The notes beneath the pieces are model-generated. The model was not told the DNA's origin. It made no database searches and saw nothing but the letters and a program-made list of their open reading frames with translations. Shown here one piece after another: positions 4,830 to 33,429 of a stretch of 64,000 nucleotides of DNA. Origin of the DNA: Candidatus Vogelbacteria bacterium (GTDB lineage: Bacteria; Patescibacteriota; Minisyncoccia; Phycocordibacterales; XYD1-FULL-46-19); NCBI GenBank assembly GCA_903864935.1, contig CAIPHT010000006.1, positions 37,129-101,128 of the forward strand, written 5' to 3'. Each line of letters begins with the position of its first letter. The first letter of the stretch is position 1. Both the position numbers and the translations under genes were made by a program.

Positions 4830-4931
4830 TTTTCACCTCCTTTCGGGTAGGTTGTTGTGGATCACTTGATCCGATTGTAGAGACCTTTCCTTCCTCAAGC
4901 TAACAGATTGCCTGTTATTGTCAAAAACTAA

Positions 4932-4971
4932 GGTAATAAACCATTCACGACCGTGAATGAATTGCTACCTT
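4932..4971 (+). repeat. 40-bp imperfect palindrome, family A copy 1 (ggtaataaaccattcacgaccgtgaatgaattgctacctt).
   Basis: Outer GGTAA..TTACC arms and inner CATTCACG-a-CCGTGAATG arms. Copies at 5557 and 30551. Confidence 0.6.
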
Positions 4972-4997
4972 GATATAAATTATCTATAATTTAAGAA

Positions 4998-5561
4998 ATG
5001 AAAAAGATTTCTAGAATAAATCACAAAGAAGTTATTTTAAGAACTATTGGCCTAGCTGGTTTACTTGCGGTCTCGGCTGTTGCCCCTGGGGTTTTGGTTC
5101 TTTATAAAAAACACAAGAAAATCCAGTATGAAAAACAGTCCAGAAATTATATAAACAGGGCAACGCAAAATCTAATCAAAGATGGTTTTGTCGAAATAAA
5201 AATTAACGAACAGGGAATAAAGTGCCTCCGTCTAACCAATCGTGGTCAAGAAGCCCTAAAGGAATACGCTTTGGCTGGGCTAGAAATCAAAAAACCTTGG
5301 CGTTGGGATCACAAATACCGGGTAATTATCTTCGATATTAAGGAATTTAAACGAGGAACGAGAGACAAACTAAGGCACTGGCTAGAACATCTTGGCTTTG
5401 TTCGCCTACAAAACAGTGTCTGGGTTTATCCCTATGATTGTCGAGAGGTCGTGATCTTACTTAAAGCTAATTTTAAAATAGGGAAAGAAGTCCTATATAT
5501 GACAGTTGATTCTATAGAAAACGATAAGTGGCTCAAGAAAGAATTTGGTCTGGCTAGGTAA
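4998..5561 (+). CDS. Short PaaX-like protein: N-terminal hydrophobic segment, a wHTH, and a Cas2/PaaX-middle-domain-like beta-alpha-beta core.
   Basis: 187 aa. The segment WRWDHKYRVIIFDIKEFKRGTRDKLRHWLEHLGFVRLQNSVWVYP matches the PaaX pattern W.GKW...L...GF.......P and the Cas2-like strand-helix-strand layout. TATAAT lies 7 nt upstream of the ATG with no SD. The gene is flanked by 40-bp palindromes at 4932-4971 and 5557-5596. Confidence 0.5.
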   Translation: MKKISRINHKEVILRTIGLAGLLAVSAVAPGVLVLYKKHKKIQYEKQSRNYINRATQNLIKDGFVEIKINEQGIKCLRLTNRGQEALKEYALAGLEIKKPWRWDHKYRVIIFDIKEFKRGTRDKLRHWLEHLGFVRLQNSVWVYPYDCREVVILLKANFKIGKEVLYMTVDSIENDKWLKKEFGLAR

Positions 5562-5596
5562 CAAACCGTTCACGGTCGTGAATGGTTTACTACCTT
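5557..5596 (+). repeat. 40-bp imperfect palindrome, family A copy 2. Overlaps the stop codon of the PaaX-like gene.
   Basis: ggtaacaaaccgttcacggtcgtgaatggtttactacctt. Confidence 0.6.
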
Positions 5597-5648
5597 TCTT
5601 TTTATTAAGAATTGTGATAATTTGCCAACAGAAAGGAGGTGATTAACA

Positions 5649-6071: not shown

Positions 6072-6077
6072 TTGGAA

Positions 6078-9056
6078 ATGGAAAAAAAATCTAAATACGA
6101 TCATAAAAAGATCGAGGCCAAGTGGCAAAAGAAATGGGTAAAAGATAAAACTTACGAGACCAAGGACCCTTCGACAGGCTCAGGGCGAGCGGGAAGTAAG
6201 AAGCCCAAGGCCTATGTTCTCGACATGTTCCCATACCCCTCTGGTGACGGACTTCACGTTGGGCATCCTAAGGGCTATATTGCCACTGATATTTACTCCC
6301 GTTTCAAGCGCATGAACGGTTTTAACGTCTTGCACCCGATGGGTTGGGACGCTTTTGGTTTGCCAGCCGAGAATTATGCCATTAAGAACAAGATTAATCC
6401 TGAGGTCGCCGTTAAGAAAAATGTTAAACGCTTTAGAGAACAAATAGACAAAATTGGTTTTGATTATGATTGGTCGCATGAGATTAATACCACTGACCCC
6501 AAGTACTATAAATGGACACAATGGATTTTCTTACAATTATATAAAAAGGGGCTCGCTCATGAGTCTTGGGAGCCAATTAATTGGTGCCCATCGTGCAAGA
6601 CAGGTCTCGCCAATGAAGATCTTGAGAATGGTAAATGTGAGCGCTGTGGCTCTGAAGTAGAGAAGAAGCCCATGCGTCAATGGATTCTTAAGATTACCGA
6701 TTATGCCGAACGTTTGCTCTCCGACTTAGATGCTCTTAATTGGCCCGAATCCGTCAAGGAATCTCAACGCAATTGGATTGGCAAAAGTGAAGGTTCCGAA
6801 ATTTCCTTCCCGATCAAAACAAAATATAAGTATGTCTTACTCCACGGCTGGCGCAGTAGCTCTAAGACCTGCTTCTTCCCTTGGCTTAAGAAAGAGCTCG
6901 AGGCCGAGGGTCATGAGGTTATCGCTCTTGATATGCCTCACCCACTGCTACCTGATGTCGTAGAGCAAGCGGATTATGTTTTGTCGAAGGTCAAATTCGA
7001 TGAGAACACAATTCTTTTGGGCCACTCACTTGGTTCTGTTGTCTCTTATCGCATCTTAGAAAAACTTAAGACACCAATTCATAAATTAATTTTGGTCGCC
7101 GGTTTAATTGAGCCTAAATTCCGCGACCATGACCGCTTGCTTGCCAAGTATTTAATGAGTTGGAAATTTGATTTTGAGAAAATTAAGAAAACTGTTGGCG
7201 AAATTGTCATTCTTGAAGACAATAATGACGTTATCATCCCCGATGGCGAATCGAATGTGATAAAACAGGCCCTTGGTGGTTATAATTACCGCCTAGAGGC
7301 CGAGAAAGCCCATTTCTGCGGGACGGTTGAACCTTTGGTCTTAGAGCACAGCCTCGACAAGATCAAGGTCTTCACCACTCGGGCCGACACCTTGTTTGGT
7401 GCGACTTATTTAGTCGTGGCGCCTGAACATCCGATAATTGAGAGGTTGTCTCCTCAGATTGATAATATCAAAGAAGTTAGAAAATATGTCGCCAAGGCCA
7501 GCAAGCGAACAGAAATTGAGCGAACAGCTGAAGGCAAAGACAAAACAGGAGTTAAACTTGAAGGTCTAACAGCCATTAATCCAGTTAATAACAAAGAAAT
7601 TCCCATTTGGGTCGCCGATTATGTTCTCCCTGATTACGGCACAGGAGCAATTATGGCTGTTCCGGCTCACGACGAACGCGACTATCAGTTTGCGAAGAAA
7701 TTTAATCTGCCGGTTATCCAAGTTATTGGTGAGGACTTGCCAACCAGACTAGAAAATTGGGGGCAAGCCTATGCTGGTTATGGTAAATTAATTAATTCTG
7801 GTAATTTCACCGGGATGGAGAGTACCAAGGCGAAGGGAGCAATTACCAAACTCGCTCGGGGGCAAATGGTCACCAAATACAAACTTCGTGACTGGGTCTT
7901 CTCGCGTCAACGTTATTGGGGCGAACCGATCCCAATTATTCATTGCCCTAAGTGTGGTGTTGTGCCCGTCCCCGAGAAAGAATTACCCGTCGTTCTACCT
8001 AAAGTGAAGAGCTATGAGCCAACTGGCACAGGGGAGTCACCGCTGGCCGCTATCTCTAAGTGGGTCAATGTGAAGTGTCCGATTTGTGGCGAGAAGGCCA
8101 AACGTGAGACCAATACCATGCCTCAGTGGGCCGGGTCATCTTGGTATCATCTGCGTTATATTGATCCGAAGAATAACAAGGCTCTCGTTGATAAAAAGAA
8201 AGAGAAATATTGGTCACCGGTAGACGTGTATGTTGGTGGCACCGAGCACGCCACTCGTCACTTAATCTACGCTCGCTTCTGGCACAAATTCCTCTTCGAT
8301 ATCGGAGCGGTGAGCCAAACCGAACCTTATGCTCGACTTAAAAATCAGGGGATGATCTTGGGTGCCGACAACCGCAAAATGAGTAAGCGTTGGGGTAATG
8401 TTATTAACCCCGATGATATTGTGCGCGATTTTGGCGCTGACACTCTCCGCGTTTATGAGATGTTTATGGGACCCTTCGAGCAAGGCGCGTCATGGAGTAC
8501 TGATAACTTAATGGGCGCGAGACGCTTTGTGGAGAAAGTTTGGAGATTAAGTCAACGACTTCGCACAGCTGGTTCATCAAGTAAAGCCCTTGAGGTCTTA
8601 CTCCACAAAACTATCAAGCAAGTCACTTCAGATATCGATAATTTCAACTACAACACGGCCATCTCGGCGCTCATGATATTAACGAATGAGTGGGAAAAAG
8701 TTGGGGGCGTAACTAAAGAAGATTGGCTAATTTTTCTCAAATTATTCGCACCTTTTGCTCCGCACTTAGCCGAAGAGTTGTGGTCTAATCCGCCAGCTGG
8801 CGGAGGACAAAAAGGTTCTATCCACCTCGCCAAGTGGCCAGAATTTGATGAGAAGAAGCTCGTGAGCGACACCGTCACCCTCGTCATCCAAGTTAACGGC
8901 AAAACCAGAGAATCAATTATTGTAGACAGGGACACCTCACAAGAAGAGGCCGTAAAAATGGCTCTAAATAACGATATTATTAAAAAATGGGTGGGTGAAG
9001 TCGTACCCAAGAAGATAATTTATGTACCCAATCGTTTGCTCAATCTGGTCGTCTAA
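6078..9056 (+). CDS. leuS: Leucyl-tRNA synthetase carrying an inserted YdeN/RBBP9-type serine-hydrolase (alpha/beta-hydrolase) domain, nt about 6822-7346.
   Basis: HIGH motif HVGHPKGY, Zn motif CPSCK...CERCG, CP1 hallmarks VFTTRADT and AVPAHDERD, KMSKS as KMSKRW, and a C-terminal anticodon-binding domain. Between NWIGKSEGSEISFPI and KVFTTRADT there are about 175 residues, where E. coli has about 10. These align along their length with B. subtilis YdeN (LHGW.SS..FFPWLKK.L...G..V.ALDMP.P..P; GHSLG nucleophile elbow). The ORF track starts at the TTG at 6072; the ATG at 6078 is the more likely start. Confidence 0.9.
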   Translation: MEKKSKYDHKKIEAKWQKKWVKDKTYETKDPSTGSGRAGSKKPKAYVLDMFPYPSGDGLHVGHPKGYIATDIYSRFKRMNGFNVLHPMGWDAFGLPAENYAIKNKINPEVAVKKNVKRFREQIDKIGFDYDWSHEINTTDPKYYKWTQWIFLQLYKKGLAHESWEPINWCPSCKTGLANEDLENGKCERCGSEVEKKPMRQWILKITDYAERLLSDLDALNWPESVKESQRNWIGKSEGSEISFPIKTKYKYVLLHGWRSSSKTCFFPWLKKELEAEGHEVIALDMPHPLLPDVVEQADYVLSKVKFDENTILLGHSLGSVVSYRILEKLKTPIHKLILVAGLIEPKFRDHDRLLAKYLMSWKFDFEKIKKTVGEIVILEDNNDVIIPDGESNVIKQALGGYNYRLEAEKAHFCGTVEPLVLEHSLDKIKVFTTRADTLFGATYLVVAPEHPIIERLSPQIDNIKEVRKYVAKASKRTEIERTAEGKDKTGVKLEGLTAINPVNNKEIPIWVADYVLPDYGTGAIMAVPAHDERDYQFAKKFNLPVIQVIGEDLPTRLENWGQAYAGYGKLINSGNFTGMESTKAKGAITKLARGQMVTKYKLRDWVFSRQRYWGEPIPIIHCPKCGVVPVPEKELPVVLPKVKSYEPTGTGESPLAAISKWVNVKCPICGEKAKRETNTMPQWAGSSWYHLRYIDPKNNKALVDKKKEKYWSPVDVYVGGTEHATRHLIYARFWHKFLFDIGAVSQTEPYARLKNQGMILGADNRKMSKRWGNVINPDDIVRDFGADTLRVYEMFMGPFEQGASWSTDNLMGARRFVEKVWRLSQRLRTAGSSSKALEVLLHKTIKQVTSDIDNFNYNTAISALMILTNEWEKVGGVTKEDWLIFLKLFAPFAPHLAEELWSNPPAGGGQKGSIHLAKWPEFDEKKLVSDTVTLVIQVNGKTRESIIVDRDTSQEEAVKMALNNDIIKKWVGEVVPKKIIYVPNRLLNLVV

Positions 9057-10193: not shown

Positions 10194-10236
10194 CCCGCCA
10201 GACCTTAAGTGAGCCCAAGGTCTGGCGGGTTTTTTG
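10194..10236 (+). terminator. Rho-independent terminator.
   Basis: CCCGCCAGACC-loop-GGTCTGGCGGG followed by TTTTTTG. Confidence 0.65.
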
Positions 10237-11465: not shown

Positions 11466-12440
11466 ATGACTGAAGAAAGAAAACCCCTATCAGCCTGGGC
11501 AAAATTGGGCTTAACCATAATAATCACCGCGACCAGTGCCTTGGCCTTATTTGTTGTCTTGGCCGTTTTCCCGCCACGCAATTTCCCAGCCAACTCCTTC
11601 ATCCATGTTGACCGCGGTAAGACCGTCACCATGATTGGCCAAGAACTTAAAGCGAAGGGGATTATTCGCTCCGTTACCGCCTTTAAATTTTTCACCGTCC
11701 TCTTAGGTGGTGAGAAGCGAATGCAAGTCGGAACATATTTCTTCAGGCAACCAAGCTCGGTTATTAATGTCGCCCTTAAGATTACCAATCGCTTCTTAGG
11801 GATTAAGCCTTATCGAGTAACAGTGACCGAAGGTCTGTCAAATGAAAAAATTGCCAATCTCTTAGCCAAACAAATTCCCCATTTCGATAAAAAAGATTTT
11901 CTCGAGAAAACCAAGGGTTCGGAGGGTAAACTTTTTCCCGACACCTATTTCTTCTCGCCCCTCGACAATGTCGATGACATAATTTTTGAGATGAGCCAGA
12001 GCTGGCAAGAACAGACTAAAGATATTCGCGCCGAGACCCTCTTCTCGGGCAAATCTTTTGACGACATCTTAACCATGGCCTCAATTATTGAGAGAGAAAC
12101 GAGAACGGCCGAAGATCGGCGCCTCGTTAGCGGCATTCTTTGGAAGCGAATGAGTCTGGGTATGCCCCTGCAAGTTGATGCGACTTTCGAATATTACACC
12201 AAATATAATACTTATACGATAACCAAAGCCGAGATGAAGAAAGATTCGCCTTATAATACCTATACCAACAAGGGTCTACCGCCCACACCAATAGCCAACC
12301 CCGGCCTCGATTCGATCATTGCCGCCCTCCATCCAACCCAAACAGATTATCTCTATTATCTTACCGGCCGTGATGGCAAAATGTATTATGCCACCGATTT
12401 TGCTGGACATAAGAAGAATCGTCGCTTATATTTGGACTAA
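11466..12440 (+). CDS. mltG: Endolytic murein transglycosylase MltG (YceG family).
   Basis: N-terminal TM helix and a conserved C-terminal YceG motif set (NPGLDSIIAALHP...DYLYYL...G...FA.T...H..N). The start is moved from the ORF-track 11409 to the ATG at 11466 so it does not overlap the upstream gene. Confidence 0.75.
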   Translation: MTEERKPLSAWAKLGLTIIITATSALALFVVLAVFPPRNFPANSFIHVDRGKTVTMIGQELKAKGIIRSVTAFKFFTVLLGGEKRMQVGTYFFRQPSSVINVALKITNRFLGIKPYRVTVTEGLSNEKIANLLAKQIPHFDKKDFLEKTKGSEGKLFPDTYFFSPLDNVDDIIFEMSQSWQEQTKDIRAETLFSGKSFDDILTMASIIERETRTAEDRRLVSGILWKRMSLGMPLQVDATFEYYTKYNTYTITKAEMKKDSPYNTYTNKGLPPTPIANPGLDSIIAALHPTQTDYLYYLTGRDGKMYYATDFAGHKKNRRLYLD

Positions 12441-13636
12441 TGTCCACAAAAAAACAACAACGGGTATTTGTCGGTATGAGTGGCGGAGTAGACAGCTCGG
12501 TCTCGGCCGCTTTGCTTAAGCAGGCCGGTTATGAAGTAATTGGCGTTTTTATCCGTGTCTGGGAACCGGCCGGTTTTGTTTGCAACTGGAAGGAAGAGCG
12601 ACGCTGGGCGAGACGAGTAGCGGCCCACTTAGACATCCCCTTACTTACCCTCGATTTAAGCAGGGAATATAAAAAGAGAGTTGTTGATTATTTTATCTCT
12701 GAATATAAAGCTGGGCGAACACCAAATCCTGACGTGATGTGTAATAAGCATATCAAATTTGGTGTTTTCTATGATTGGGCAATGGCTCACGGTGCCGATT
12801 TTGTGGCAACGGGACACTACTCTCGCGTCGAAAAAACGCGAGAATTATCAATGATCAATTCTCAATTTTCTCAAGCCCCGGTTTCCCGAGGTGAGTCCTC
12901 AAGTGCTGTGCCCCTCGAAGCCCTTGGGCGAAGTGGGGAGCCCGAGGTCTCACCTCAAGAGGGGCTTGTTCTAGAAATTGCCAAAGACTTAAACAAGGAC
13001 CAATCATACTTCCTCTGGAATCTTAAAACCGAGCAACTCTCTAAAATCCTTTTCCCAATTGGCCAATACACCAAACCTGAAGTGCGCAAACTCGCAACAA
13101 AATTCAAACTCCCCACCGCCCTTAAAAAAGACAGTCAGGGTTTATGTTTTGTTGGCAAAATTGATTTCAAAGATTTTTTAAAACGCGAGATTAAAGAAAA
13201 AGAGGGAAATGTCTTAAATGAAAGAGGGGAAGTAATAGGCAAGCATGAAGGGGCCACCTTTTTTACCATTGGCGAAAGACATGGCTTCGAAATTAGCACC
13301 AAATCACCAAGTGAATTGCCTTATTACATCATTGCCAAAGATATTAAGAAAAATACTCTCACTGTCTCAAACAAAAATAATCAAGGGCGTGCCTTGATTA
13401 CGGAAATAAAAATAGAAAAAACAAATTGGATTTCTGATCCCCAAAAGCTACCAACTAAAAGCTACCAACTAAAAGCTAGGGTCCGCTACCGTCAACCCCT
13501 CCAAAAATGCTCACTGTTAATAGTTGATGGTCAATCGTCAATAGTCACTTTCGACCAACCCCAAATCGCCGCCCCCGGCCAATCGCTTATCTTATATCAT
13601 AAGGATATCTGCCTCGGCGGGGGAATTATTGCCTAA
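12440..13636 (+). CDS. mnmA: tRNA 2-thiouridylase MnmA, with an in-frame insertion of about 23 residues encoded by a palindromic repeat element.
   Basis: PP-loop VFVGMSGGVDSSVSA, plus DQSYFLW and a C-terminal GQSLILYHKDICLGGGII. The extra segment ...RGESSSAVPLEALGRSGEPEVSPQEG... is encoded by nt 12888-12956, which is a diverged copy of the repeat at 35667-35733. Confidence 0.85.
   Translation: MSTKKQQRVFVGMSGGVDSSVSAALLKQAGYEVIGVFIRVWEPAGFVCNWKEERRWARRVAAHLDIPLLTLDLSREYKKRVVDYFISEYKAGRTPNPDVMCNKHIKFGVFYDWAMAHGADFVATGHYSRVEKTRELSMINSQFSQAPVSRGESSSAVPLEALGRSGEPEVSPQEGLVLEIAKDLNKDQSYFLWNLKTEQLSKILFPIGQYTKPEVRKLATKFKLPTALKKDSQGLCFVGKIDFKDFLKREIKEKEGNVLNERGEVIGKHEGATFFTIGERHGFEISTKSPSELPYYIIAKDIKKNTLTVSNKNNQGRALITEIKIEKTNWISDPQKLPTKSYQLKARVRYRQPLQKCSLLIVDGQSSIVTFDQPQIAAPGQSLILYHKDICLGGGIIA
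12888..12956 (+). repeat. About 69-bp palindromic element in its full-length form, inserted in frame in mnmA. Outer arms are GAGGTGAGTCCTC / GAGGTCTCACCTC; the core CCCCTCGAAGCC..CGAAGTGGGGAG is shared with 35667-35733.
   Basis: Direct sequence comparison with the intergenic copy at 35667-35733. Confidence 0.6.
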
Positions 13637-13677
13637 ATTTGACGAAAAGAAATTAAGAGAGTTTACTTAAATCAGAC

Positions 13678-13729
13678 AGCGAGGTGTTCTCGCGCAAAAG
13701 AAAAGGGCTCAAAAAGGGAGGAAAAACCC
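13678..13729 (+). promoter_or_regulatory. Conserved leader of small-protein cassette 1: hairpin aGCGAGgtgttCTCGCg, an A-rich tract, then the SD aagggagg.
   Basis: Near-identical to 14060-14112. Confidence 0.45.
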
Positions 13730-13966
13730 ATGAGCAACGATGATAACTTTACCCCGCCGTTCATCCCGTTCGGGGAAACAAATTCGGCTGACCCAAAAGG
13801 GGAGACCGATATCCTCAGACCCGGCAGTGTATTTGGCCCTCCGGGGTCAACAATCGGCCAGCTTCAAGCTGACAGGTTCCAGCGGATTCTCGGTGGAGAT
13901 CTTTCCCGAGAAGAATTAAAGGGAACGGACATCGAGAGATTCCGGAGGGCGAAGCATGGATTGTGA
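13730..13966 (+). CDS. Small hypothetical protein (cassette 1, 78 aa).
   Basis: SD aagggagg 9 nt upstream. Leader and terminator are shared with cassette 2. GC-rich island. Confidence 0.35.
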   Translation: MSNDDNFTPPFIPFGETNSADPKGETDILRPGSVFGPPGSTIGQLQADRFQRILGGDLSREELKGTDIERFRRAKHGL

Positions 13967-13983
13967 TGCTTTGTCTTTCCCGG

Positions 13984-14023
13984 CCCCCGACACGCACCAG
14001 CGTTGTCGGGGGCAGTTTTGTTT
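13984..14023 (+). terminator. Rho-independent terminator of cassette 1.
   Basis: CCCCCGACA-cgcaccagcg-TTGTCGGGGG followed by cagTTTTGTTTG. Confidence 0.6.
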
Positions 14024-14059
14024 GACTATTTTCATTACTAAGCGTTTAATCAATTTAGA

Positions 14060-14112
14060 AGCGAGGTGTTCTCGCGAAACAAAAAAGCTCAAACAAGGGA
14101 GGAAAACAACCC
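14060..14112 (+). promoter_or_regulatory. Conserved leader of small-protein cassette 2.
   Basis: Same hairpin AGCGAGGTGTTCTCGCG, A-rich tract and SD as 13678-13729. Confidence 0.45.
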
Positions 14113-14484
14113 ATGAGCAATAGTATGAAAGTAGTTACGTTCGGAAGGAGTATCCTTTCCGGCGTCATCTTTTGCGAGATAGGAGGAACAGTTGCTTTCG
14201 CCAAAAAAGCGGGCCCCCAACCTAAGGAGGGAGAAACCTGGGAGGTAATACCTCACCGGAACGGGGATGACGGAACTTACTTCCTCCTTGAACTCCTTAA
14301 GAAAATTGAGGAGGGCCCTAAGTCCCCCTCTGTCGAAGAGATCCTTGGGACCATCAACTTCGACGGCAATGGCCCCGGTCCCGAAGGGCCACCTGAACTG
14401 CCGGAGGACTTCGACGCCGGTGGCGTTATCGAACCGAGTGACCGCCCCTGGGATGGTGGAGTTCACCGACGCTTACCAATCTGA
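14113..14484 (+). CDS. Small hypothetical protein (cassette 2, 123 aa), with a hydrophobic N-terminus and a Gly/Pro/acidic-rich C-terminus.
   Basis: SD aagggagg upstream. Preferred over the overlapping minus-strand ORF 14089-14466 because of the SD and the paralogous cassette structure. Confidence 0.35.
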   Translation: MSNSMKVVTFGRSILSGVIFCEIGGTVAFAKKAGPQPKEGETWEVIPHRNGDDGTYFLLELLKKIEEGPKSPSVEEILGTINFDGNGPGPEGPPELPEDFDAGGVIEPSDRPWDGGVHRRLPI

Positions 14485-14502
14485 ACCCGGTTTCTTTCGT
14501 TG

Positions 14503-14541
14503 CCCCCGACACGCATCAGCGTTGTCGGGGGCAGTTTTGTT
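14503..14541 (+). terminator. Rho-independent terminator of cassette 2.
   Basis: CCCCCGACA-cgcatcagcg-TTGTCGGGGG followed by cagTTTTGTTT. Paralogous to 13984-14023. Confidence 0.6.
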
Positions 14542-14650
14542 TATTCAAAAAACCCTTATTTGTCGAAGTCCAACTTCGTAAACTATACAAAACTGTTAAT
14601 AAGTGACAAATATTTTTATTTTTGGCTATTTTTTGTTACTATATTAGACA

Positions 14651-16480
14651 ATGACATCTGAAGAAATCCGGCAAAAGTTCTTAGACTTTTTCGAACAAAG
14701 GGGGCACAAGATAGTGCCTTCGGCTTCGCTTATCCCTAGTACTTACGGCGACGAGGGGACTCTCTTCACCACGGCGGGGATGCAACCCATGATTCCTTAC
14801 TTACTAGGCAAAGCCCACCCCGAAGGTGTAAGAATTGCCGACGTGCAGAAATGTCTGCGCACAATTGACATCGATGACGTGGGTGACAACAGGCATAATA
14901 CTTTTTTCGAAATGTTGGGTAATTGGTCACTTGGTGATTATTTTAAAGCTGAGTCCATCCCTTGGAGTTTCGATTTTCTCACTAACAAAGAATATGGCTT
15001 GGGTCTCGACCCGGCTAGATTTTACGTTACCGTCTTTAAAGGTCAAGAGGCCACCGCCGAAGGCGGGGCAAGCATCCCGCGCGACGAAGAATCAATCAAA
15101 ATCTGGCAAGAAGTTTTTGCTAAATATAATATTTCTAATGAAGTGGCGGGCGAAGACGGAGTTGTTAAAGAAGGAGTAAGAATAATCCCACTTGGTGTTG
15201 ATGACAACTTCTGGATTGCCGGTAATTCTGGCCCCTGCGGTGGAGATACTGAGATTTTTTATGATGTCTACCCGAACGACAAAGTCGGGCGGGCCAACCC
15301 AGAAGGTAATTTTAATGACCTCGTAGACTCCTTCAGATTAATTGAGGTGTGGAATAACGTCTTCATGGAGTACAACAAGACCACAGAGGGCAAATATGAG
15401 CCTCTAGCGGCCAAAAATGTAGACACCGGCATGGGCTTAGAACGCACAACGGCCGTCGTTAATGGCAAGGACAATATTTTTGAGACAGATCTCTTTGCCC
15501 CTATTCTCAGCGAGATTAAACAACAGGTGGCCAATTTTGATGTTAAAGCTTCACGTATTGTTGCCGACCATGTGCGTACCGCTGTCTTTATGATTGCCGA
15601 CGGGGTGACTCCATCAAACACTGACCGAGGCTATATCTTAAGACGAATTATCCGTCGCGCGGTGCGTTATGCTGACAGTATGCAGGCTGACAATGAGGTC
15701 TTAAGCAAAGTGGCCTATATTGTGATTGAAAAATATAAAAAAGTTTATCCCGAACTTGAGCAAAACCGTGAGCAAATTTTTACTGAGCTAAATAAAGAGG
15801 AAGAAAAATTTAGAAAGACACTCGAGCAAGGCCTTAAAGAATTCGAGCGAGGTCAGGACCCCTTCGATCTCTACCAAACTTTTGGCTTCCCGATTGAATT
15901 AACCGAGGAATTGGCTCAAGAAAGAGGGATAACAATAGACAGAAAGAAGTTTGATGAGCAAATGATTGAGCATCAAGCTATTTCTAAGGCTGGCTCTGAG
16001 CAGAAGTTCAAAGGCGGGCTTGCCGAGCACTCCGAGCAGACGATTAAATATCATACCGCTACCCACCTCTTACACTCCGCCTTGCGACAAGTCTTGGGGA
16101 AAGAAGTTGGACAGAAGGGGAGCAACATCACCGACGAGCGTCTGCGCTTCGACTTCGCTTGGCCAAATAAATTGACCGATGCACAAAAGATTGAGGTAGA
16201 AAAAATTGTGAACGATAGCATCTCCGCCAATTTGCCCGTCTGTCGCATTGAGCTCTCTAAAGAAGAGGCCGAGAAAACCGGCGCCCTGCACTTCTTCGGT
16301 GAGAAATATGGCGACACTGTCTCGGTTTATTATATTGGTGATGGTATCGACGATGCCGTATCTAAAGAATTCTGCGGTGGCCCTCATGTCAAGAATACCG
16401 GCGCCCTCGGCCACTTCAAAATCACTAAGGAAGAGGCCTCCTCGGCCGGAGTCAGACGCATTAAAGCCATTTTGGAATAA
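14651..16480 (+). CDS. alaS: Alanyl-tRNA synthetase, compact 609-aa form that lacks the C-terminal C-Ala domain.
   Basis: Class-II AlaRS N-terminal motifs (FLDFFEQRGH, GNWSLGDYFK), the editing-domain zinc site HTATHLLH, and CGGPHV. Confidence 0.85.
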   Translation: MTSEEIRQKFLDFFEQRGHKIVPSASLIPSTYGDEGTLFTTAGMQPMIPYLLGKAHPEGVRIADVQKCLRTIDIDDVGDNRHNTFFEMLGNWSLGDYFKAESIPWSFDFLTNKEYGLGLDPARFYVTVFKGQEATAEGGASIPRDEESIKIWQEVFAKYNISNEVAGEDGVVKEGVRIIPLGVDDNFWIAGNSGPCGGDTEIFYDVYPNDKVGRANPEGNFNDLVDSFRLIEVWNNVFMEYNKTTEGKYEPLAAKNVDTGMGLERTTAVVNGKDNIFETDLFAPILSEIKQQVANFDVKASRIVADHVRTAVFMIADGVTPSNTDRGYILRRIIRRAVRYADSMQADNEVLSKVAYIVIEKYKKVYPELEQNREQIFTELNKEEEKFRKTLEQGLKEFERGQDPFDLYQTFGFPIELTEELAQERGITIDRKKFDEQMIEHQAISKAGSEQKFKGGLAEHSEQTIKYHTATHLLHSALRQVLGKEVGQKGSNITDERLRFDFAWPNKLTDAQKIEVEKIVNDSISANLPVCRIELSKEEAEKTGALHFFGEKYGDTVSVYYIGDGIDDAVSKEFCGGPHVKNTGALGHFKITKEEASSAGVRRIKAILE

Positions 16481-18857: not shown

Positions 18858-21320
18858 GTGATGTTCGCCTCTAAGAAAAAAGTGGGGAGTAATGTTATTG
18901 GTGTTATCGATATTGGTAGCGCGCGGGTTAGCGGTGCCTTAATGACTGACTGGCCCAAGATAACAGGGGAGACAAGCGAGAGTGTCAATTGGCAAGAATT
19001 GCCCGATTGGGACAGATTCCAAGCGGGAATTGAGCAATCACTCGAGCGCGTTCTTAAGAAATTAGCCAAGGGCAAACACGCTAAACCAACGGAGTTATTT
19101 GTTTTCCTCTCGGCCCCCTTTTTTATCGGTAGCACCAAGATTGTACGTACCAAAGATAAAGCCCCTTTTGAGATTACTCCACCTTATCTCGCTGGCTTGG
19201 TAAAAAAAGATATTCTAAGCTTTGATCGTGGACAGAAGGGCGATCTCGTTCGACTCGAGAACGAGATTATGCAAATTAAGCTCAACGGCTATTCAGTTAC
19301 CGAACCGCTCGGCCAGATGGCCACCGAGATAGAACTCTCTCACTGGCAAAGCGAGAGTCACATTTCCTTAATTGAGAAATTCAAAGAGATTATTAAGGGA
19401 GAATTTCCCGAAGCACGAATAACTTTCCATTCCTTCGCCTATGCCTCTTACGCCGTTTTTAGCGAATTATTGCCCGAGAAGGATCTGATTATCATCGACA
19501 CCGGCAACGAATTGACCGATGTCATCGTTATTAAAGATGGTTATCTTGCCGAACACTTATCCTTCCCTTTGGGTAAGAATTATCTTATTCGTTCTGTCAC
19601 CAAGTCTCTCCAGACTGTGCCCGTTGACACTGAGGGTATTCTTAATCGTTACGCGAGCAGTAAGACAAACAATCAACTAAAGAATCGTCTCGAACCAGCT
19701 CTCGTTAAGCCCGCCGAAGAATGGTTGGGAAATCTTGGCGAATCTCTAACCCGCGCCCTAAAGACAACAATACTGCCCGAAGATATTTATATTTTTGGTG
19801 ACGAACCAAGCGACAAAGTCTTCGCTGATTTTATAAAAAAGGCCGATTTTTCATCCATTTCTATCGGTCACAAACCTTTTAGAGTCTATTATTCAGAGAA
19901 ACCGCTCGGTCAAGCACTTGAGCACTTGTCAGGCAAAATTTCTCCACCCGTTGGCAATAATTTCCTTTTGGCAGAGGCCCTCTTTTGTGCTATGCTGAAG
20001 GGTAGCAAATTGAATCTTTGGCCATTTAATCAATTAATAACAACTATGCATGATATAACTAAAAACAAAAAAAGTTTGCGTGATATCTTCCCCGAGAACA
20101 AAGTCGGGACGGGGACTATTAATAATTCTATGAATGAAGAGCCTAATTTCAAAACTTCGAGCTACACCCCTCAGAGACCAGTACGGTCTAGCACCGGCTT
20201 GAGCCTAAAGATCAAAATCTTTGCCGGAGTTCTCGTCTTAGCCATCATTATCGCCGGCGGTTTTGCCCTCTCATCACAATTTGCCAAGATTACCGTTAAG
20301 GTTACTCCCAAACAAGGTCGCCTGATGGTCAGCAATACCTATGAGGCCAACAAGTTGGCCGGTGAAGGGCTCAAGTTTTCTCTGGCCTCCAATATTTCGG
20401 TTGAAGATAGTGCCAACGTTCCAGCCAGCGGCGTAGTTGCCGTTAAGAACAAGACTCGAGGCAAAATTGTCATCTCTAATACAAGCAACACTAGTCAGAA
20501 CCTAATCGCTACCACCCGCTTCCAAACTCAAACTGGTTTAATCTATCGGATTGAGAAAAATATCAGCGTACCAGTCGGTCAGTCAGAGGTCACCGTTGTC
20601 GCTGATCAGCCCGGCCCAGATTACAATCTAGCCAGTGCCGATTTTACTATCCCTGGCTTTAAGGGGACGCCCAAATTCACTCAATTCTCCGCCAAGACAA
20701 AGGAGGCTCTCACCGGTGGGGCAATTGGCAATCAACCAAAAGTCTCGGACGAAGATCTTGCCAAGGCAACCGCTGGCCTCAAAGCCAAACTTCTGGCTGC
20801 CGCCGTGGCCAAACTTAAGCCCCAAATTCCCGACGGTTTTATCCTTTTTGACGGAGCAGTTATTGCCAATTTCACCCCAGAGATTAGTAGCGACCCCAGC
20901 AAGCCTGGCGAAGCGATCCTTAAGCTTAAGGCGGATGCCACCGGTATCCTCTTCAACGAGAGAGAGCTGGCAGGATTTCTAGCCAAGCAACAAGTTCCCG
21001 ATTACAAGGACGAACCGGTTGATGTCACCAATTGGTCAAGTTTCAAATTTAGCTTGATAAATAACGATAATTCTGACCTAAGCAGTGTCGACAAAGTCAG
21101 TTTCAAACTTGAGGGGACCGGCCAATTAGTCTGGGCCTTCGACCCCGCAATGCTTAAACAGAAGCTCCAATCTGCCGGAGCAAACAATTATAAGACGGTC
21201 TTCACCCAAGATTTTCCTATGATCCAAGTGGCCAACATTGTCTTCACCCCACCCTGGGTGAGGAGTATCCCAAGTGACCCCAACCGGATCTCGGTCGAGA
21301 CAAGCATTAGCAAGCCTTGA
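18858..21320 (+). CDS. Large membrane-anchored protein with an N-terminal actin-like ATPase domain (FtsA/PilM-like), one TM helix and a long extracytoplasmic C-terminal region.
   Basis: Phosphate-1-like motif IGVIDIGSARVSGAL. TM helix IFAGVLVLAIIIAGGFALS near residue 450. 820 aa. TATAAT lies 4 nt before the ATG. Confidence 0.45.
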   Translation: MMFASKKKVGSNVIGVIDIGSARVSGALMTDWPKITGETSESVNWQELPDWDRFQAGIEQSLERVLKKLAKGKHAKPTELFVFLSAPFFIGSTKIVRTKDKAPFEITPPYLAGLVKKDILSFDRGQKGDLVRLENEIMQIKLNGYSVTEPLGQMATEIELSHWQSESHISLIEKFKEIIKGEFPEARITFHSFAYASYAVFSELLPEKDLIIIDTGNELTDVIVIKDGYLAEHLSFPLGKNYLIRSVTKSLQTVPVDTEGILNRYASSKTNNQLKNRLEPALVKPAEEWLGNLGESLTRALKTTILPEDIYIFGDEPSDKVFADFIKKADFSSISIGHKPFRVYYSEKPLGQALEHLSGKISPPVGNNFLLAEALFCAMLKGSKLNLWPFNQLITTMHDITKNKKSLRDIFPENKVGTGTINNSMNEEPNFKTSSYTPQRPVRSSTGLSLKIKIFAGVLVLAIIIAGGFALSSQFAKITVKVTPKQGRLMVSNTYEANKLAGEGLKFSLASNISVEDSANVPASGVVAVKNKTRGKIVISNTSNTSQNLIATTRFQTQTGLIYRIEKNISVPVGQSEVTVVADQPGPDYNLASADFTIPGFKGTPKFTQFSAKTKEALTGGAIGNQPKVSDEDLAKATAGLKAKLLAAAVAKLKPQIPDGFILFDGAVIANFTPEISSDPSKPGEAILKLKADATGILFNERELAGFLAKQQVPDYKDEPVDVTNWSSFKFSLINNDNSDLSSVDKVSFKLEGTGQLVWAFDPAMLKQKLQSAGANNYKTVFTQDFPMIQVANIVFTPPWVRSIPSDPNRISVETSISKP

Positions 21321-25315: not shown

Positions 25316-25329
25316 TCTCAAATCCTACC

Positions 25330-25360
25330 AATCAGCCCAGTTGACAAACTGGGCTGATTT
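25330..25360 (+). terminator. Hairpin terminator after the rplM-rpsI operon.
   Basis: ATCAGCCCAGTT-gaca-AACTGGGCTGAT followed by a weak T tract. Confidence 0.45.
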
Positions 25361-25416
25361 AGTGTTCAATAGAAAAAGAAAATACACTCGTGCCAAAGGC
25401 ACAGGAAAGGAAGAAT

Positions 25417-25557
25417 ATGAGCTGCATAGATCAAGTCGGTATTGTTGTCTTTGCTGCGGGAGTGGCCTTGGTTGTCTTTTCCATGTATAGACTCATGGCA
25501 GAGGCCCTGAGTTCAACCGAAAAAGACAAGGAGCCCTTTGGGATTGAATGGTTTTGA
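25417..25557 (+). CDS. Possible 46-aa single-TM small protein. Not in the ORF track because it is under 60 aa.
   Basis: SD ggaaaggaag 6 nt upstream. Hydrophobic core IVVFAAGVALVVF. Strong terminator immediately downstream at 25574-25615. Confidence 0.25.
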   Translation: MSCIDQVGIVVFAAGVALVVFSMYRLMAEALSSTEKDKEPFGIEWF

Positions 25558-25573
25558 CCTACCGATAACTACA

Positions 25574-25615
25574 CCCGGCGCGCCCCAAGCGCGCCGGGTG
25601 GTTTCTTTTTATTTT
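25574..25615 (+). terminator. Rho-independent terminator.
   Basis: CCCGGCGCGCC-ccaa-GCGCGCCGGG followed by tggTTTCTTTTTATTTTT. Confidence 0.65.
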
Positions 25616-25619
25616 TCTT

Positions 25620-25890
25620 AATTTATGCCATAGTAAAACTACACAGCTTAAGGGCTCACTTGCCACAAGTTCTAGGACAGAAACTTAATCTTGTGCAAAG
25701 GAGGAGAAGACGGAGGGAAGACCTCTGAGATGAAAAAGGTCTTACATTGGGCAAGACGGTAGGTATGACAGATGGGAAGACTGCGGTTGTTCCCCGCACC
25801 CCTGTCACTGGCAAGCTGAATGGGCCGAGCTGGATAGGGGTGTCACAATAGTGGCATCCCGCCTTTTTATTTAAACTTATCCCCATTTTT
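25620..25890 (+). ncRNA. Candidate structured non-coding region. The strand is unknown and no family is assigned.
   Basis: About 270 nt lies between a strong terminator and the REP element, with no credible ORF. Several local hairpins, for example AAGACCT-ctgagatgaaaa-AGGTCTT. I see no convincing match to RNase P, SRP, tmRNA or 6S RNA conserved motifs. Confidence 0.2.
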
Positions 25891-25896
25891 GTATAC

Positions 25897-25919
25897 TATG
25901 CGAGATTGGATATCGCACA
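25897..25919 (+). repeat. REP hairpin (tatgcgaGATTGGATAtcgcaca).
   Basis: 7-bp stem and 9-nt loop. Identical core at 26640, 30888 and 49459, and an inverted copy at 26105. Confidence 0.7.
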
Positions 25920-25949
25920 ATAAGGGTTTTTATGATAATATAATGACCA

Positions 25950-26624
25950 ATGAGGGAGAAGCCCACGGAAGACTACATTTATCACATTTTTAATCGCGGA
26001 GTAGACAAGCGAGAAATTTTTTCTGATGACAGTGATCGTCAACGTTTTTTGGCCTGTCTTTATCATTTTAATGACACAGCTCAAGTGAGAAATATCGATC
26101 GCGTGTGCGATATCCAATCTCGCACAAATGACGACCGGGATAAATTAGTGGAGATACTAGCCTTTACCCTGATGCCTAACCACTTCCATCTCTTAGTAAA
26201 ACCTCTGATTGAAGACGGTGTTTCTGAATTTATGAAAAAAATTGGTATTGGCTACACTCATTACTTTAATATAAAAAACGAACGATCAGGAAGTCTCTTT
26301 CAAGGTAAATATAAATTTGTAAGGATAGAAGACGATGAGCAGCTAAACTATATACCTTATTACATCCACTTTAATCCAGCCGAACTCGTTGATTCGGGAT
26401 GGAAAGAAAAAAAAGTTCAGGATAGTCAAAAGGTTTTTGATTTTTTAAAATCTTATAGATGGTCAAGTCTTCGAGATTATCTCGGCCAAGACAATTTCTC
26501 TCAAATTATAGACAAAGGGGTCCTGACAGACTACCTAGGGAGCCCCGAAGAATTTGAGAAGGAAATCTCTGCTTGGCTCAAAGAAATGGGCTCAATAGAC
26601 CATACAAATCTGTGGATAGAGTAG
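25950..26624 (+). CDS. IS200/IS605-family Y1 (HUH) transposase of the RAYT type.
   Basis: YHIFNRGVDKREIF, HUH motif NHFHLLV, then GYTHYFN....SGSLFQGKY with the catalytic Tyr. 224 aa, which is typical RAYT length. Confidence 0.8.
   Translation: MREKPTEDYIYHIFNRGVDKREIFSDDSDRQRFLACLYHFNDTAQVRNIDRVCDIQSRTNDDRDKLVEILAFTLMPNHFHLLVKPLIEDGVSEFMKKIGIGYTHYFNIKNERSGSLFQGKYKFVRIEDDEQLNYIPYYIHFNPAELVDSGWKEKKVQDSQKVFDFLKSYRWSSLRDYLGQDNFSQIIDKGVLTDYLGSPEEFEKEISAWLKEMGSIDHTNLWIE
26105..26127 (+). repeat. REP hairpin copy in inverse orientation, embedded inside the RAYT coding sequence.
   Basis: tgtgcgaTATCCAATCtcgcaca, encoding DRVCDIQSRTND. Confidence 0.6.
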
Positions 26625-26639
26625 CCAAAATATCCTTAT

Positions 26640-26662
26640 TGTGCGAGATTGGATATCGCACA
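26640..26662 (+). repeat. REP hairpin (tgtgcgaGATTGGATAtcgcaca).
   Basis: Perfect 7-bp stem; see 25897. Confidence 0.7.
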
Positions 26663-26746: not shown

Positions 26747-27319
26747 ATGACTAAAAACATAGACGAAAACGAGGAGGATTTTGAGTTCGTGGAGAATACC
26801 GAAGATAGGGCGCCAGAGGCAGCCGAGATGGGCGGGAAATTGAAGAAAGTTAAAGAAGAACTCAAAGCCTGCCAGACCGAACGCTCTGAATACCTTGATG
26901 GCTGGCAACGCGCCAAGGCAGACTACCTGAATCTTAAAAAGGAGGGGGAAGCAGGGAAAAGCGAGCTGGCCAAATGGGCCAAAGAAGGAGTACTTGCAGA
27001 TCTCTTCGTTCTCGCCGACAGCTTCGAGATGGCCTTCATCAACAAAGAAGCTTGGGAGCAGGCACCAGAGAATTGGCGGAAGGGGGTGGAATATATTTAT
27101 AACCAATTGCAAAACATTTTCCGCGACCACGGAGTAGAAGAGATAGAACCCAAGGTGGGCGACAAATTCAATCATGCGGAACAGGAACCCATCGCGACAA
27201 TTGAAACTGATAACAAAGAAGAAGATGATGAAATTGTTGAAATAATTAAGAAAGGTTACCGTCTACATGGGAAGATAGCGAGACCGGCGAGTGTAAAAGT
27301 TAAGCATTATCAAAATTAA
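26747..27319 (+). CDS. grpE: Nucleotide exchange factor GrpE.
   Basis: Coiled-coil N-terminus and a conserved GrpE core (LADLFVLADSFE...HGVEEIEP.GDKFNHAEQEPIATIE..IVEIIKKGYRLHGKIARPASVKV). Directly upstream of dnaK. Confidence 0.8.
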   Translation: MTKNIDENEEDFEFVENTEDRAPEAAEMGGKLKKVKEELKACQTERSEYLDGWQRAKADYLNLKKEGEAGKSELAKWAKEGVLADLFVLADSFEMAFINKEAWEQAPENWRKGVEYIYNQLQNIFRDHGVEEIEPKVGDKFNHAEQEPIATIETDNKEEDDEIVEIIKKGYRLHGKIARPASVKVKHYQN

Positions 27320-27438
27320 TTTCCAATTATCAATTCTCAATTTTCAATCAAGTCTCCAATGTTTCAATTTTAAAATTTACTGAAAATTGAGAACTGAAAA
27401 TTGATCATTATTAGATTAAAAAACAGATAAAAATAAAC

Positions 27439-30359: not shown

Positions 30360-30550
30360 CCGCGGGGAATGCTCAGGGCCGATTTCTACGCAGGGTAGAC
30401 CTAAGTCACCTTCGCCTGCAACAGAGCAAGCTACGGCGAACCAAGGAGGGGGTTGCCCTAATCAGCTGATTTCAAGAGTGCCTTACTGAATTTCAGACAC
30501 TCACTTTCTGCTTCTAATTATACTCTCATTTTACTGCCCTGTCAAGCCAT

Positions 30551-30590
30551 GGTAATCATCCATTCACGACCGTGAACGATTTGTTACCTT
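30551..30590 (+). repeat. 40-bp imperfect palindrome, third copy of family A (ggtaatcatccattcacgaccgtgaacgatttgttacctt).
   Basis: Same architecture as 4932-4971 and 5557-5596. Confidence 0.6.
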
Positions 30591-30616
30591 GTTCGAAACC
30601 TTTCCCCCAACAAAAG

Positions 30617-32762: not shown

Positions 32763-32807
32763 CGACCTATTTCCCATACTTATAATTATAACCTTATGTA
32801 CAAAATC

Positions 32808-32834
32808 AGACGGCCGTCCAAAAGTGTACATAAG
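32808..32834 (+). repeat. 27-bp direct repeat, left copy (agacggccgtccaaaagtgtacataag). Contains the perfect palindrome GACGGCCGTC.
   Basis: 26 of 27 identical to 33403-33429, in the same orientation. Confidence 0.65.
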
Positions 32835-32850
32835 GTTCTTTATAAAATAT

Positions 32851-33372
32851 TTAGATAATATCTGTTTCTTTAACTTCAAAAAATTTCAGAAAAGGCGTAA
32901 TCTTCGCTACTTTCAAAAACTCAATAAATTCTGGGGGTAACGGGGCGGGGCCAAGCCAGACACTCTGTTGCATTTTTTTGAAACCGAGGGTTACCAATTC
33001 TATCCTCAACCAGTTTCTGTCTTTACGTCTCGCTTCGGGAATGTCAAAAGCTATAATAATCTTGCGGTCTGATTTTTTCTGTTTATTTTCTACTCTGGCA
33101 TATTTTTTAGAAAACTTACTTTTACCAAATTTATTCTTACCGAAAACTGTGATTTTCCAAAGACCATCTTTATTTTCAACCAAACCCTGCTTTTTCAGGC
33201 GAGACAGGGCAACCCTAAGAGAATTATCAAAAACTTTATCCTCCTTTATTTTAGAACCCTCCCCCAGATCATCAAAGCCAGGACCAACACGCCGAAGCAT
33301 CCGTTCTCTCAAACGGCTATAATTTCCGGGACTATTCGATAAGAAAAATAACAATTCTTCACCAATACTCAT
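32851..33372 (-). CDS. Short PaaX-like protein 2 (wHTH plus Cas2-like core), a paralogue of 4998-5561.
   Basis: RKIIIAFDIPEARRKDRNWLRIELVTLGFKKMQQSVWLGPAP gives the same pattern as the first copy. The N-terminal wHTH is LRVALSRLKKQGLVENKDGLWKIT. The start is moved to the ATG at 33372, because the ORF-track start at 33426 lies inside the flanking direct repeat. Confidence 0.45.
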   Translation of the reverse strand: MSIGEELLFFLSNSPGNYSRLRERMLRRVGPGFDDLGEGSKIKEDKVFDNSLRVALSRLKKQGLVENKDGLWKITVFGKNKFGKSKFSKKYARVENKQKKSDRKIIIAFDIPEARRKDRNWLRIELVTLGFKKMQQSVWLGPAPLPPEFIEFLKVAKITPFLKFFEVKETDII

Positions 33373-33402
33373 TTTTTTATTTATCACCATATTATCATAT
33401 TT

Positions 33403-33429
33403 GGACGGCCGTCCAAAAGTGTACATAAG
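33403..33429 (+). repeat. 27-bp direct repeat, right copy (ggacggccgtccaaaagtgtacataag).
   Basis: See 32808-32834. Confidence 0.65.

Follow-up and report, generated by a model that had tools for sequence, protein, structure and literature searches.

In a 64-kb stretch of Candidatus Vogelbacteria DNA (contig CAIPHT010000006.1), the mnmA gene carries an insert of 69 nt that is best explained as two selfish palindromic elements, one nested within the other and both in frame, lodged in a tolerant surface loop of the MnmA protein. The outer element is a doublet of repetitive extragenic palindromic (REP) units and the inner one a unit of about 30 nt; we give this reading a probability of roughly 0.7. 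The whole stretch is referred to here as the window, and all coordinates without a locus label are window coordinates. The original prediction had described a repeated, mobile-looking palindrome inserted in frame in mnmA (69 nt, or 23 codons, at 12888-12956), and in this we agree with it. It had also taken the insert for the full-length form of a family resembling miniature inverted-repeat transposable elements (MITEs), from which a shorter form derives by deletion and whose arms are actively diversifying. Our conclusion is that it was right in kind, since this is a mobile palindromic repeat read in frame, and wrong in architecture and direction.

The outer layer would belong to a REP doublet family tied to a conserved, syntenic Y1/HUH transposase gene that resembles the REP-associated tyrosine transposases (RAYTs). 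The inner unit would have been added later, in the lineage of the window, at a fixed position of the doublet's loop (AAGTG^AGCCC), and the composite is predicted to be read through in MnmA as a disordered loop between two strands.

Anatomy of the composite hairpin and order of its layers

The MnmA open reading frame (ORF; 12440-13636, 398 aa) holds the hairpin in frame at residues R150-Q173, and across 12888-12956 the parts follow one another as GAGGTGAGTCCTC-AAGTG-CTGTGCCCCTCGAAGCCCTTGGGCGAAGTGGGG-AGCCC-GAGGTCTCACCTC. The 13-nt arms are complementary at 12 of 13 positions, and the palindrome reaches beyond the 69 nt through a further pair, CAAGCCCC/GGGGCTTG, that is common to the related loci L001 and L002. 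Enclosed between the two halves of the spacer is the inner unit, an imperfect palindrome of about 30 nt (CTTG + CCCCTCGAAGCCTTGGCGAAGTGGGG) that measures 33 nt in mnmA. Of the three bases in excess of the consensus, one lies in the head and the others, a C and a G that are complementary, make the central stem longer; between them the three preserve the reading frame.

The outer layer is a 36-nt hairpin in which two inverted 13-nt mini-palindromes (GARGT-NNN-ACYTC) stand around the 10-nt spacer AAGTGAGCCC. Its short form reads GAAGTCCAACTTC + AAGTGAGCCC + GAAGTTGGACTTC in pyrD, and a pyrD-like ORF (33796-35130) carries it three times in frame (at 34237, at 34294 on the minus strand and at 34606). 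The 64 kb contain the pattern GARGTNNNACYTC 11 times, where 0.22 occurrences are expected, and GAAGTCCAACTTC, with up to two mismatches allowed, 12 times, where 1.9 are expected. The doublets fold at -20 to -22 kcal/mol (z = -4 to -6), and four of the six in the window, three in pyrD and one in mnmA, are in frame inside ORFs; single arms are found at 34335, 14565 and 29443. The claim that copies lie repeatedly within coding sequence is borne out by pyrD, with its three doublets and one singlet. Differences between the arms of different copies are differences between sub-families of one 13-nt pattern.

The insert in mnmA had been said to share its inner core with an intergenic element, and the original prediction named a pairwise alignment with significance statistics as the test on which that similarity might fail. 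It survived. Local alignment of 12888-12956 with 35667-35732 covers 50 columns with three single-base gaps and two mismatches and scores 69, far beyond the 15.6 +/- 2.6 (maximum 27) of 2000 dinucleotide shuffles. This alignment is the top non-self match anywhere in the window, and the 16-mer GAAGTGGGGAGCCCGA is present there only at these two sites (0.01 expected). The proposal of two size classes also stands, but the lengths given for them do not: the short form is 36 nt (13+10+13) rather than 37 bp, and the intergenic long form is 66 nt rather than about 67 bp.

The orthologous sites of related genomes indicate which form came first. At the mnmA site, L001 has a bare 36-nt hairpin with identical arms (GAGGTGAGTCCTC AAGTGAGCCC GAGGTCTCACCTC), and L002/L003 has the same arms and loop with a different palindrome, also of 36 nt (CGCCTGCC...GGCAGGCC), at AGCCC^GAGGT; this second palindrome occupies the same loop position of another hairpin in the L002 genome. 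The closest relative of the window's PyrD (P0122, 82% identical, locus L161) has EVQLQVPAPRSLGEVGSPKLD in the position of the window's EVQLQVSPKLDF, and the L161 DNA has the 30-nt piece at AAGTG^AGCCC of the doublet at pyrD site 2, a doublet that carries no insert in the window. L162 has no doublet at all at that site; here the insertion boundaries of the outer doublet are ambiguous, and so, likewise, is any call of a target-site duplication. Wherever the inner unit sits in a doublet (three cases, with different or slightly different arms) it is at the same nucleotide, AAGTG^AGCCC, and in the same orientation. Because of the states of L001, L002 and L161, and because the inner piece is found without the arms in 77 stretches of other genomes, we regard the long form as the short form plus a second, independent element. 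Judged from these sequences, the short hairpin is the base form and the inner piece appears to be a later, separate addition.

The suggestion that mnmA orthologues be compared thus yielded an order, short to long, but not a date for the insertion. A metagenome scan with MnmA found relatives of at most 54% identity, none of whose 80 loci had the unit (up to five errors allowed), and these 80 loci had no GC-rich 18-mers in common with the others and were of no help for dating.

These observations make it very improbable that there is one MITE-like family, with a master of about 68 bp, a 37-bp derivative by internal deletion and arms that diversify after insertion. Such a family would account for the arms and loop ends common to both size classes, and for the repeated finding of copies within ORFs. 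It is contradicted by the short and long states at orthologous sites, with two different inner pieces at two loop positions, and by the free-standing inner piece, and a precise deletion of 30 or 33 nt would have just 1 nt of microhomology. Nor are the arms diversifying: three genomes in which mnmA is only 75-76% identical agree at all 36 positions of its doublet (chance about 3e-5 per pair), and on this account we regard the mnmA arms as conserved. No fixed-length target-site duplication accompanies the inner unit in any of three filled-versus-empty comparisons (mnmA doublet, doublet loops and a ligase gene described below), and the linked enzyme is of the Y1/HUH class, with no related DDE transposase. 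Because that enzyme is RAYT-like, REP/REPIN (REP doublet forming hairpins) is a better label than MITE.

At the level of the protein, query residues 135-181 stand in place of a 9-residue loop of solved MnmA structures, in accordance with the extra segment that had been predicted. AlphaFold, run on an alignment of orthologues, gave a mean predicted local distance difference test (pLDDT) score of 80.2, with values below 50 only at residues 144-173, between the strands at 128-132 and 176-180. The 69-nt insert is therefore modelled as a disordered loop of an otherwise well-predicted MnmA, whose catalytic-domain residues are conserved. Orthologues vary greatly in length at exactly this loop, which is an insertion hot spot.

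Other small repeats are found in and around the same loop. Various orthologues (P0011, P0013, P0016, P0017, P0023, P0025 and others) have different peptide inserts here and near the C-terminus, and the insert peptides EVKPLGASRFNLQ, SPEDSPLGASQG and TCPERSRG are, at the protein level, consistent with other arm variants of the hairpin pattern. Upstream in mnmA the window has a specific insertion of about 39 nt (~12822-12860), composed of a GAGAATT/AATTCTC palindrome and TCAATTN heptamers; tandem repeats of this heptamer occur in an intergenic palindrome (27317-27410) and again inside mnmA (12850-12875). The MnmA loop is a dumping ground for several small repeats.

The transposase gene and its flanking hairpins

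RAYTs are single-copy genes associated with REPs, which typically form inverted doublets (REPINs), with REPs in the flanks of the gene (PMC5581495); our use of REP, REPIN and RAYT follows published definitions (PMC5581495, PMC8049555, PMC3733652). The window contains one gene copy of this Y1/RAYT-like type, which lies between rpsI and grpE, as it does in L001, L002/L003 and L162, and across these four related genomes the gene behaves, judging by synteny, as if vertically inherited. Its 224-aa product matches Pfam Y1_Tnp at 36.5 bits (cut-off 23), and a PDB profile search returned a sole, weak match, E. coli TnpArep 4er8 (E = 0.18). The HFH (HUH) and YIHFNP motifs are conserved.

The link between this gene and the dispersed hairpins comes from L162. 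There, CGAAGTTGGACTTCG and CGAAGTCCAACTTCG lie some 20-35 nt from either end of the Y1 gene, and they are exactly the arm of the window's pyrD and intergenic copies; alignments place these flanks as positional homologues of the window's own transposase-flanking hairpins (TGCGAGATTGGATATCGCA) and of those of L002 (reverse complement). Because the pyrD/intergenic 13-mer flanks both sides of the syntenic HUH/Y1 gene in L162, we identify the outer layer as a REP doublet of REPIN-like type, and the 36-nt hairpin fits the published description of such doublets. The flanking hairpins can themselves receive inserts: at L001 20883-20935 a 27-nt palindrome, CCCGCCTGCCTAGGCATTTCGGGCAGG, is nested in the loop of the hairpin that flanks the RAYT-like gene, and the 36-nt piece inside the L002 mnmA doublet is a relative of this palindrome. 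The nested pieces seen measure 27, 30, 33 and 36 nt, every length being divisible by three.

Several points weigh against the reading of a RAYT-mobilised doublet with a transposed unit inside it. The best and only NCBIfam match of the 224-aa protein, REP_Tyr_transpos, reaches 40.9 bits, below the curated cut-off of 80. The window's transposase-flanking hairpins (CGAGATTGGATATCG) are a variant that differs from the dispersed arms, and the mnmA arms (GAGGT..) are a further variant confined to this site and found beside no Y1 gene. The spacer is the best-conserved part across sub-families while the arms vary, the reverse of textbook REPINs. A neighbour-joining (NJ) tree does not unite the three MnmA sequences that bear the doublet, and for this reason a single ancient insertion and repeated gain of the mnmA doublet are not separable. 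In L061 and L064, RAYT homologues lie 0.8-1.3 kb from the inner unit, but the palindromes beside them are different ones. Finally, transposition followed by neutral decay leaves unexplained the identity of the unit across phyla, its patchiness at the same site and its conservation at 30 of 30 positions.

The intergenic region upstream of the RAYT-like gene (25316-25949) is 634 nt long, compared with about 150 nt in L001 and L002, and contains, besides a small ORF, a stretch of some 230 nt with a terminator-like hairpin at its end. An Rfam search in E-value mode of 25540-25960 gave nothing meaningful. We rejected GGGCTCACTT (25652-25661), a 10-nt complement of the spacer, as a guide-like RNA, given its absence from L001 and L002 and a chance-match probability of about 0.1.

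The 30-nt unit in other genomes

Species-representative genomes, one per species, were scanned with CCCCTCGAAGCC(N)TTGG(N)CGAAGTGGGG. The exact core of 26-28 nt is present in 77 stretches, in each case without the arms seen here and with unrelated flanks, and the conserved block is (G)CTTG plus 26 nt. The carriers span many classes of Patescibacteria, among them Levyi-, Curtiss-, Woese-, Roizman-, Collier-, Chisholm-, Uhr-, Staskawicz- and Zambryskii-bacteria, Peregrinibacteria/Peribacteria and Saccharimonadales; carriers from several other phyla, which are metagenome-assembled genomes under their submitters' labels, include Verrucomicrobiae, Haloferula, Gammaproteobacteria, Lysobacterales, Alphaproteobacteria, Bdellovibrionales, Babeliaceae and Limnocylindrales. 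A scan of viral contigs for the unit gave no match. Around the invariant CGAAGCCTTGGCGAAG there are compensatory outer-stem variants, CCTC/GAGG and CCGC/GCGG.

The unit has no stop codon in any of its six frames, and its length is divisible by three, which is why it can persist inside genes. About three-quarters of copies are enclosed by 150 or more codons free of stops, each of the six frames is used somewhere, and the longest open stretch runs antisense to 62 of 85 copies. The six-frame peptides are PTSPRLRGAS, PLRQGFEGQA, PHFAKASRGK, LAPRSLGEVG, LPLEALAKWG and CPSKPWRSG.

The clearest site at which filled and empty states can be compared is a Curtissbacteria-type ATP-dependent DNA ligase, in which 12 of 117 homologues have exactly ten additional residues at one site. 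The DNA shows a clean insertion of 30 nt after ...TTTTG (on the unit's strand) and no target duplication. The filled ligases, a few of them decayed, are scattered over a star-like NJ tree of poor resolution. Of the 12, 11 have the peptide variant GVK/GVN, and in the DNA of L004, L013 and L068 this variant is encoded by the rare head TTTA. At orthologous sites the unit is identical at 30 of 30 positions, and the flanks are 61-79% identical.

It may be that the inner unit does not transpose, and that DNA uptake followed by homologous recombination or gene conversion carries it between doublets, or between the alleles of related species, perhaps favoured by drive or function, with transposition rare or absent. 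The scattered, filled ligase site with its shared GVK/GVN variant and the perfect identity of units between diverged flanks both speak for such a process, and the pyrD and 35667 doublets are identical over 18 nt on each side of the insertion point. As a full account we nevertheless think it unlikely. The arms of the mnmA doublet differ, so that about 8 nt of common sequence is left on each side, and the poor resolution of the ligase tree also counts against it. Moreover, each new site requires an illegitimate insertion step, since neither the host genes nor the flanks of the 82 unique copies are related. For the identity and the same-site patchiness, recombination between alleles, homogenisation and a function are all candidate accounts.

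The same conservation, of the doublet at 36 of 36 positions in three genomes and of the unit at 30 of 30, might instead mean that the hairpins are host-functional nucleic-acid signals under selection, for example by binding a protein, by acting on transcription or RNA stability, or by being cut or bound by the RAYT-like enzyme for a host purpose. The spacer AAGTGAGCCC also occurs in terminator-like hairpins after genes, and it has been argued that RAYTs and REPINs may be domesticated (PMC5581495). We consider this quite doubtful, given that presence and absence vary at the same site among close relatives, that copies occur in all six frames, in both orientations and in unrelated genes with no common position relative to them, and that there is no match to an Rfam family.

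Synthetic or chimeric sequence introduced during library preparation or assembly hardly merits belief. It is true that all carriers are metagenome-assembled genomes, but the unit is present in the closed chromosome CP066686.1, long ORFs are always left open, decayed and compensatory stem variants exist, and the same site is filled in orthologues with diverged flanks that come from different studies and assemblers.

Returning to two nested mobile palindromes, a Y1/HUH enzyme would move both layers in the form of single-stranded DNA hairpins, preferring as targets single-stranded loops such as those of hairpins and slipped tandem repeats. On the left flank of the unit there is a weak target motif, with G at -5 in 53 of 82 copies and pyrimidines at -6 and -7. 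In the flanks of 15% of copies there are direct repeats 7 nt or longer (1.6% in the control), and in those of 7% inverted repeats (0.8%), examples being 7-nt tandem repeats and the loops of G/C-rich hairpins; these enrichments suggest a preference for DNA that can expose single-stranded loops. The data on mnmA, the doublets and the unit fit, as sequence patterns, single-strand Y1/HUH "peel and paste" chemistry, because the substrates are hairpins, target duplication is lacking, the 5' bias is weak (YYG^), the loop position and orientation are fixed, and a RAYT-like enzyme is present whose own flanking hairpin takes nested inserts (L001).

We further propose, tentatively and at somewhat less than even odds, that the 30-nt unit represents a new class of ultra-small mobile hairpin, the smallest known, that colonises single-stranded loops, including those of REP doublets (as a parasite of a parasite), and is kept letter for letter across phyla, either intact or re-installed, through a trans-acting Y1/HUH enzyme or a drive based on uptake and recombination.

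Around the unit, 7-nt tandem repeats of differing kinds are seen in many genomes (for example L010, L023, L044, L052, L064 and the Peregrinibacteria loci). In L006, L035, L045, L058 and L059 (Peregrinibacteria VMFU01) the unit forms tandem pairs with a 37-nt period within CTGYCCG heptamer repeats, the two copies being read in different frames of one ORF.

Other identities for the unit were rejected. It is too short for an intron or intein and has no supporting feature of either. Arrays of the CRISPR or tandem interspaced guide RNA (TIGR) type do not match tandems of only two copies with near-identical linkers of 7-11 nt. Its copy number is far too low for a DNA-uptake sequence, and a 30-mer could not arise by point mutation; a parS/dif-like site was dismissed on finding an insertion relative to orthologues. 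Nor is it the flanking repeat of the RAYT homologues near it at L061 and L064, which have different repeats beside them, and two of 77 loci is a weak enrichment. Searched against Rfam 15, the window had no match at the gathering threshold, and 12800-13050 had none at E <= 10. A literature search with the unit's 12-mers and six peptides found no match, and its 10-mers matched only unrelated papers, those listed being on other topics. The inner unit appears to be undescribed.

Setting in the window and relation to known systems

The features discussed are collected in Table 1.

Table 1. Palindromic elements of the window, their parts, and the transposase gene
Feature	Position	Strand	Remarks
Terminator-like hairpin, other arms, same spacer AAGTGAGCCC	10194-10229	+	T run follows
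Outermost inverted repeat CAAGCCCC	12872-12879	+	pairs with 12961-12968
Composite hairpin (REP doublet + nested unit)	12888-12956	+	69 nt, 23 codons, in frame, mnmA residues ~150-173
mnmA 5' arm GAGGTGAGTCCTC, REP-like 13-mer	12888-12900	+	complement of 3' arm with one mismatch; identical in L001, L002
Spacer, left half, AAGTG	12901-12905	+	conserved in alignment of 11 family members
Nested 33-nt copy of ~30-nt unit, CTGTG + CCCCTCGAAGCCCTTGGGCGAAGTGGGG	12906-12938	+	absent at same site of L001
Spacer, right half, AGCCC	12939-12943	+	conserved in alignment of 11 family members
mnmA 3' arm GAGGTCTCACCTC	12944-12956	+	itself a 5-3-5 mini-palindrome, fits GARGTNNNACYTC
Outermost inverted repeat GGGGCTTG	12961-12968	+	pairs with 12872-12879
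REP singlet GAAGTCCAACTTC	14565-14577	+	3' extension same as transposase-proximal flank in L162
Hairpin upstream of transposase gene, TGCGAGATTGGATATCGCACA	25899-25919	+	positional homologue of CGAAGTTGGACTTCG in L162
RAYT-like Y1/HUH transposase gene, 224 aa	25950-26624	+	HFH at 78-80, YIHFNP; syntenic in L001, L002, L162
Hairpin downstream of transposase gene	26640-26662	+	positional homologue of CGAAGTCCAACTTCG in L162
Bare 36-nt REP doublet in pyrD, read as EVQLQVSPKLDF	34237-34272	+	in frame
Bare 36-nt REP doublet in pyrD, opposite orientation, EVGLRAHLKSNF	34294-34329	-	in frame; REP singlet 34335-34347 next to it
Bare 36-nt REP doublet, pyrD site 2	34606-34641	+	in frame; L161 orthologous site holds 30-nt unit; no doublet in L162
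Intergenic 66-nt composite, arms GAAGTCCAACTTC/GAAGTTGGACTTC	35667-35732	+	consensus 30-nt unit at 35685-35714, same loop position

Some further repeats were seen near these features. The singlet region 14565-14595 and L162 1770-1810 have the 3' extension CTTCGTAAACTATACAAAACTG in both, which looks like a solo end of the RAYT unit. The non-coding gap of 1015 nt (13637-14650) between mnmA and a long ORF at 14651 (alaS by L001/L002 synteny) contains internal duplications (13678/14060 and 13974/14493) and GC-rich hairpins; the corresponding gap is 48 nt in L001 and 139 nt in L002, and Rfam in E-value mode found nothing meaningful in 13600-14680. A separate hairpin, GAAGTCGGATCTGGCTACGCGAGATACGACTTC, lies at 35617-35649, and EIGSGYARSNRF, a peptide consistent at the protein level with the same kind of hairpin, is in frame in the PyrD orthologues P0123, P0124 and P0128. 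Two more palindrome families have an operator-type look: GGTAA..CATTCACGACCGTGAATG..TTACC (4925-4979, 5550-5604, 30544-30598) and TTTGGACGGCCGTCCAAA (32775-32834, 33370-33429, 60917-60976); GACGACCGTC at L001 13927-13974 resembles them. The 994-aa ORF of leucyl-tRNA synthetase (6072-9056) has an inserted segment resembling an alpha/beta-hydrolase (YVLLHGWRSS...), and the L001 and L002 orthologues give weak to faint Abhydrolase_1 / Ser_hydrolase matches at the same place. A tRNA-Gln of 83 nt called by ARAGORN at 19186-19268, inside an 820-aa ORF (18858-21320), is probably a false call.

In several respects the outer layer resembles REP/REPIN-RAYT systems: a short, over-represented palindromic unit forms hairpins as inverted doublets, singlets and doublets occur together, and the unit flanks a syntenic Y1/HUH transposase gene (the arm match in L162). 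It differs from them in that the units are just 13-15 nt, each a mini-palindrome, with the spacer rather than the arms best conserved, and in that most copies in the window are intragenic and in frame. REPs are divided into two super-families marked by a GTAG or CGTC tag (PMC3733652), and the 13-15-nt unit carries neither at its ends. The host also differs, being a member of the Patescibacteria (Paceibacterota), and a literature search for REPINs or RAYTs in Patescibacteria found nothing relevant. The outer layer is, as far as its sequence and synteny indicate, of the REP/REPIN-RAYT kind in an unusual setting.

Rickettsia palindromic elements (RPEs) are likewise palindromic repeats that enter genes in frame, leaving them open and presumably functional, and they occupy tolerant protein loops in the small genomes of host-dependent bacteria. 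RPEs are about 100-150 bp long and confined to Rickettsia, and we know of no transposase associated with them. The elements described here are set apart by size and host, being 36 and 30 nt, nested, with the inner one crossing phyla, in Paceibacterota. With IS200/IS605 elements and palindrome-associated transposable elements (PATEs) they would have in common a basis in hairpins, the lack of target-site duplication, a biased short 5' sequence (here a weak motif), strand-specific orientation and the Y1/HUH class of enzyme. IS200/IS605 elements and PATEs have two different subterminal hairpins and are much longer than 30 nt, whereas the unit has one 26-nt hairpin only, with no distinct left and right subterminal hairpins, and no identified cognate enzyme. 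REPs combine into mosaics of the bacterial interspersed mosaic element (BIME) type, yet to our knowledge there is no report of a palindromic unit that inserts at a fixed loop position of another, nor of one 26-nt sequence shared exactly across phyla. Location within coding regions has precedents: intragenic REPs with GTAG/CGTC tags lie there like the copies described here, and in-frame RPEs are also already known (PMC3733652).

The six frame peptides provide a practical marker of the unit in protein databases. The unit's sequence is far better conserved than its host genes, and close relatives differ in whether a given site holds it. Should it prove mobile, the lower size limit known for mobile elements would fall, and an undescribed carrier or enzyme would be needed. 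The mnmA composite is a natural example of one palindromic element landing in the loop of another at a fixed nucleotide, which points to an enzyme cut site. Palindromic inserts account for part of the odd extra protein loops of Patescibacteria, and REPIN-RAYT systems would extend to these bacteria, largely inside the essential genes of a tiny, gene-dense genome.

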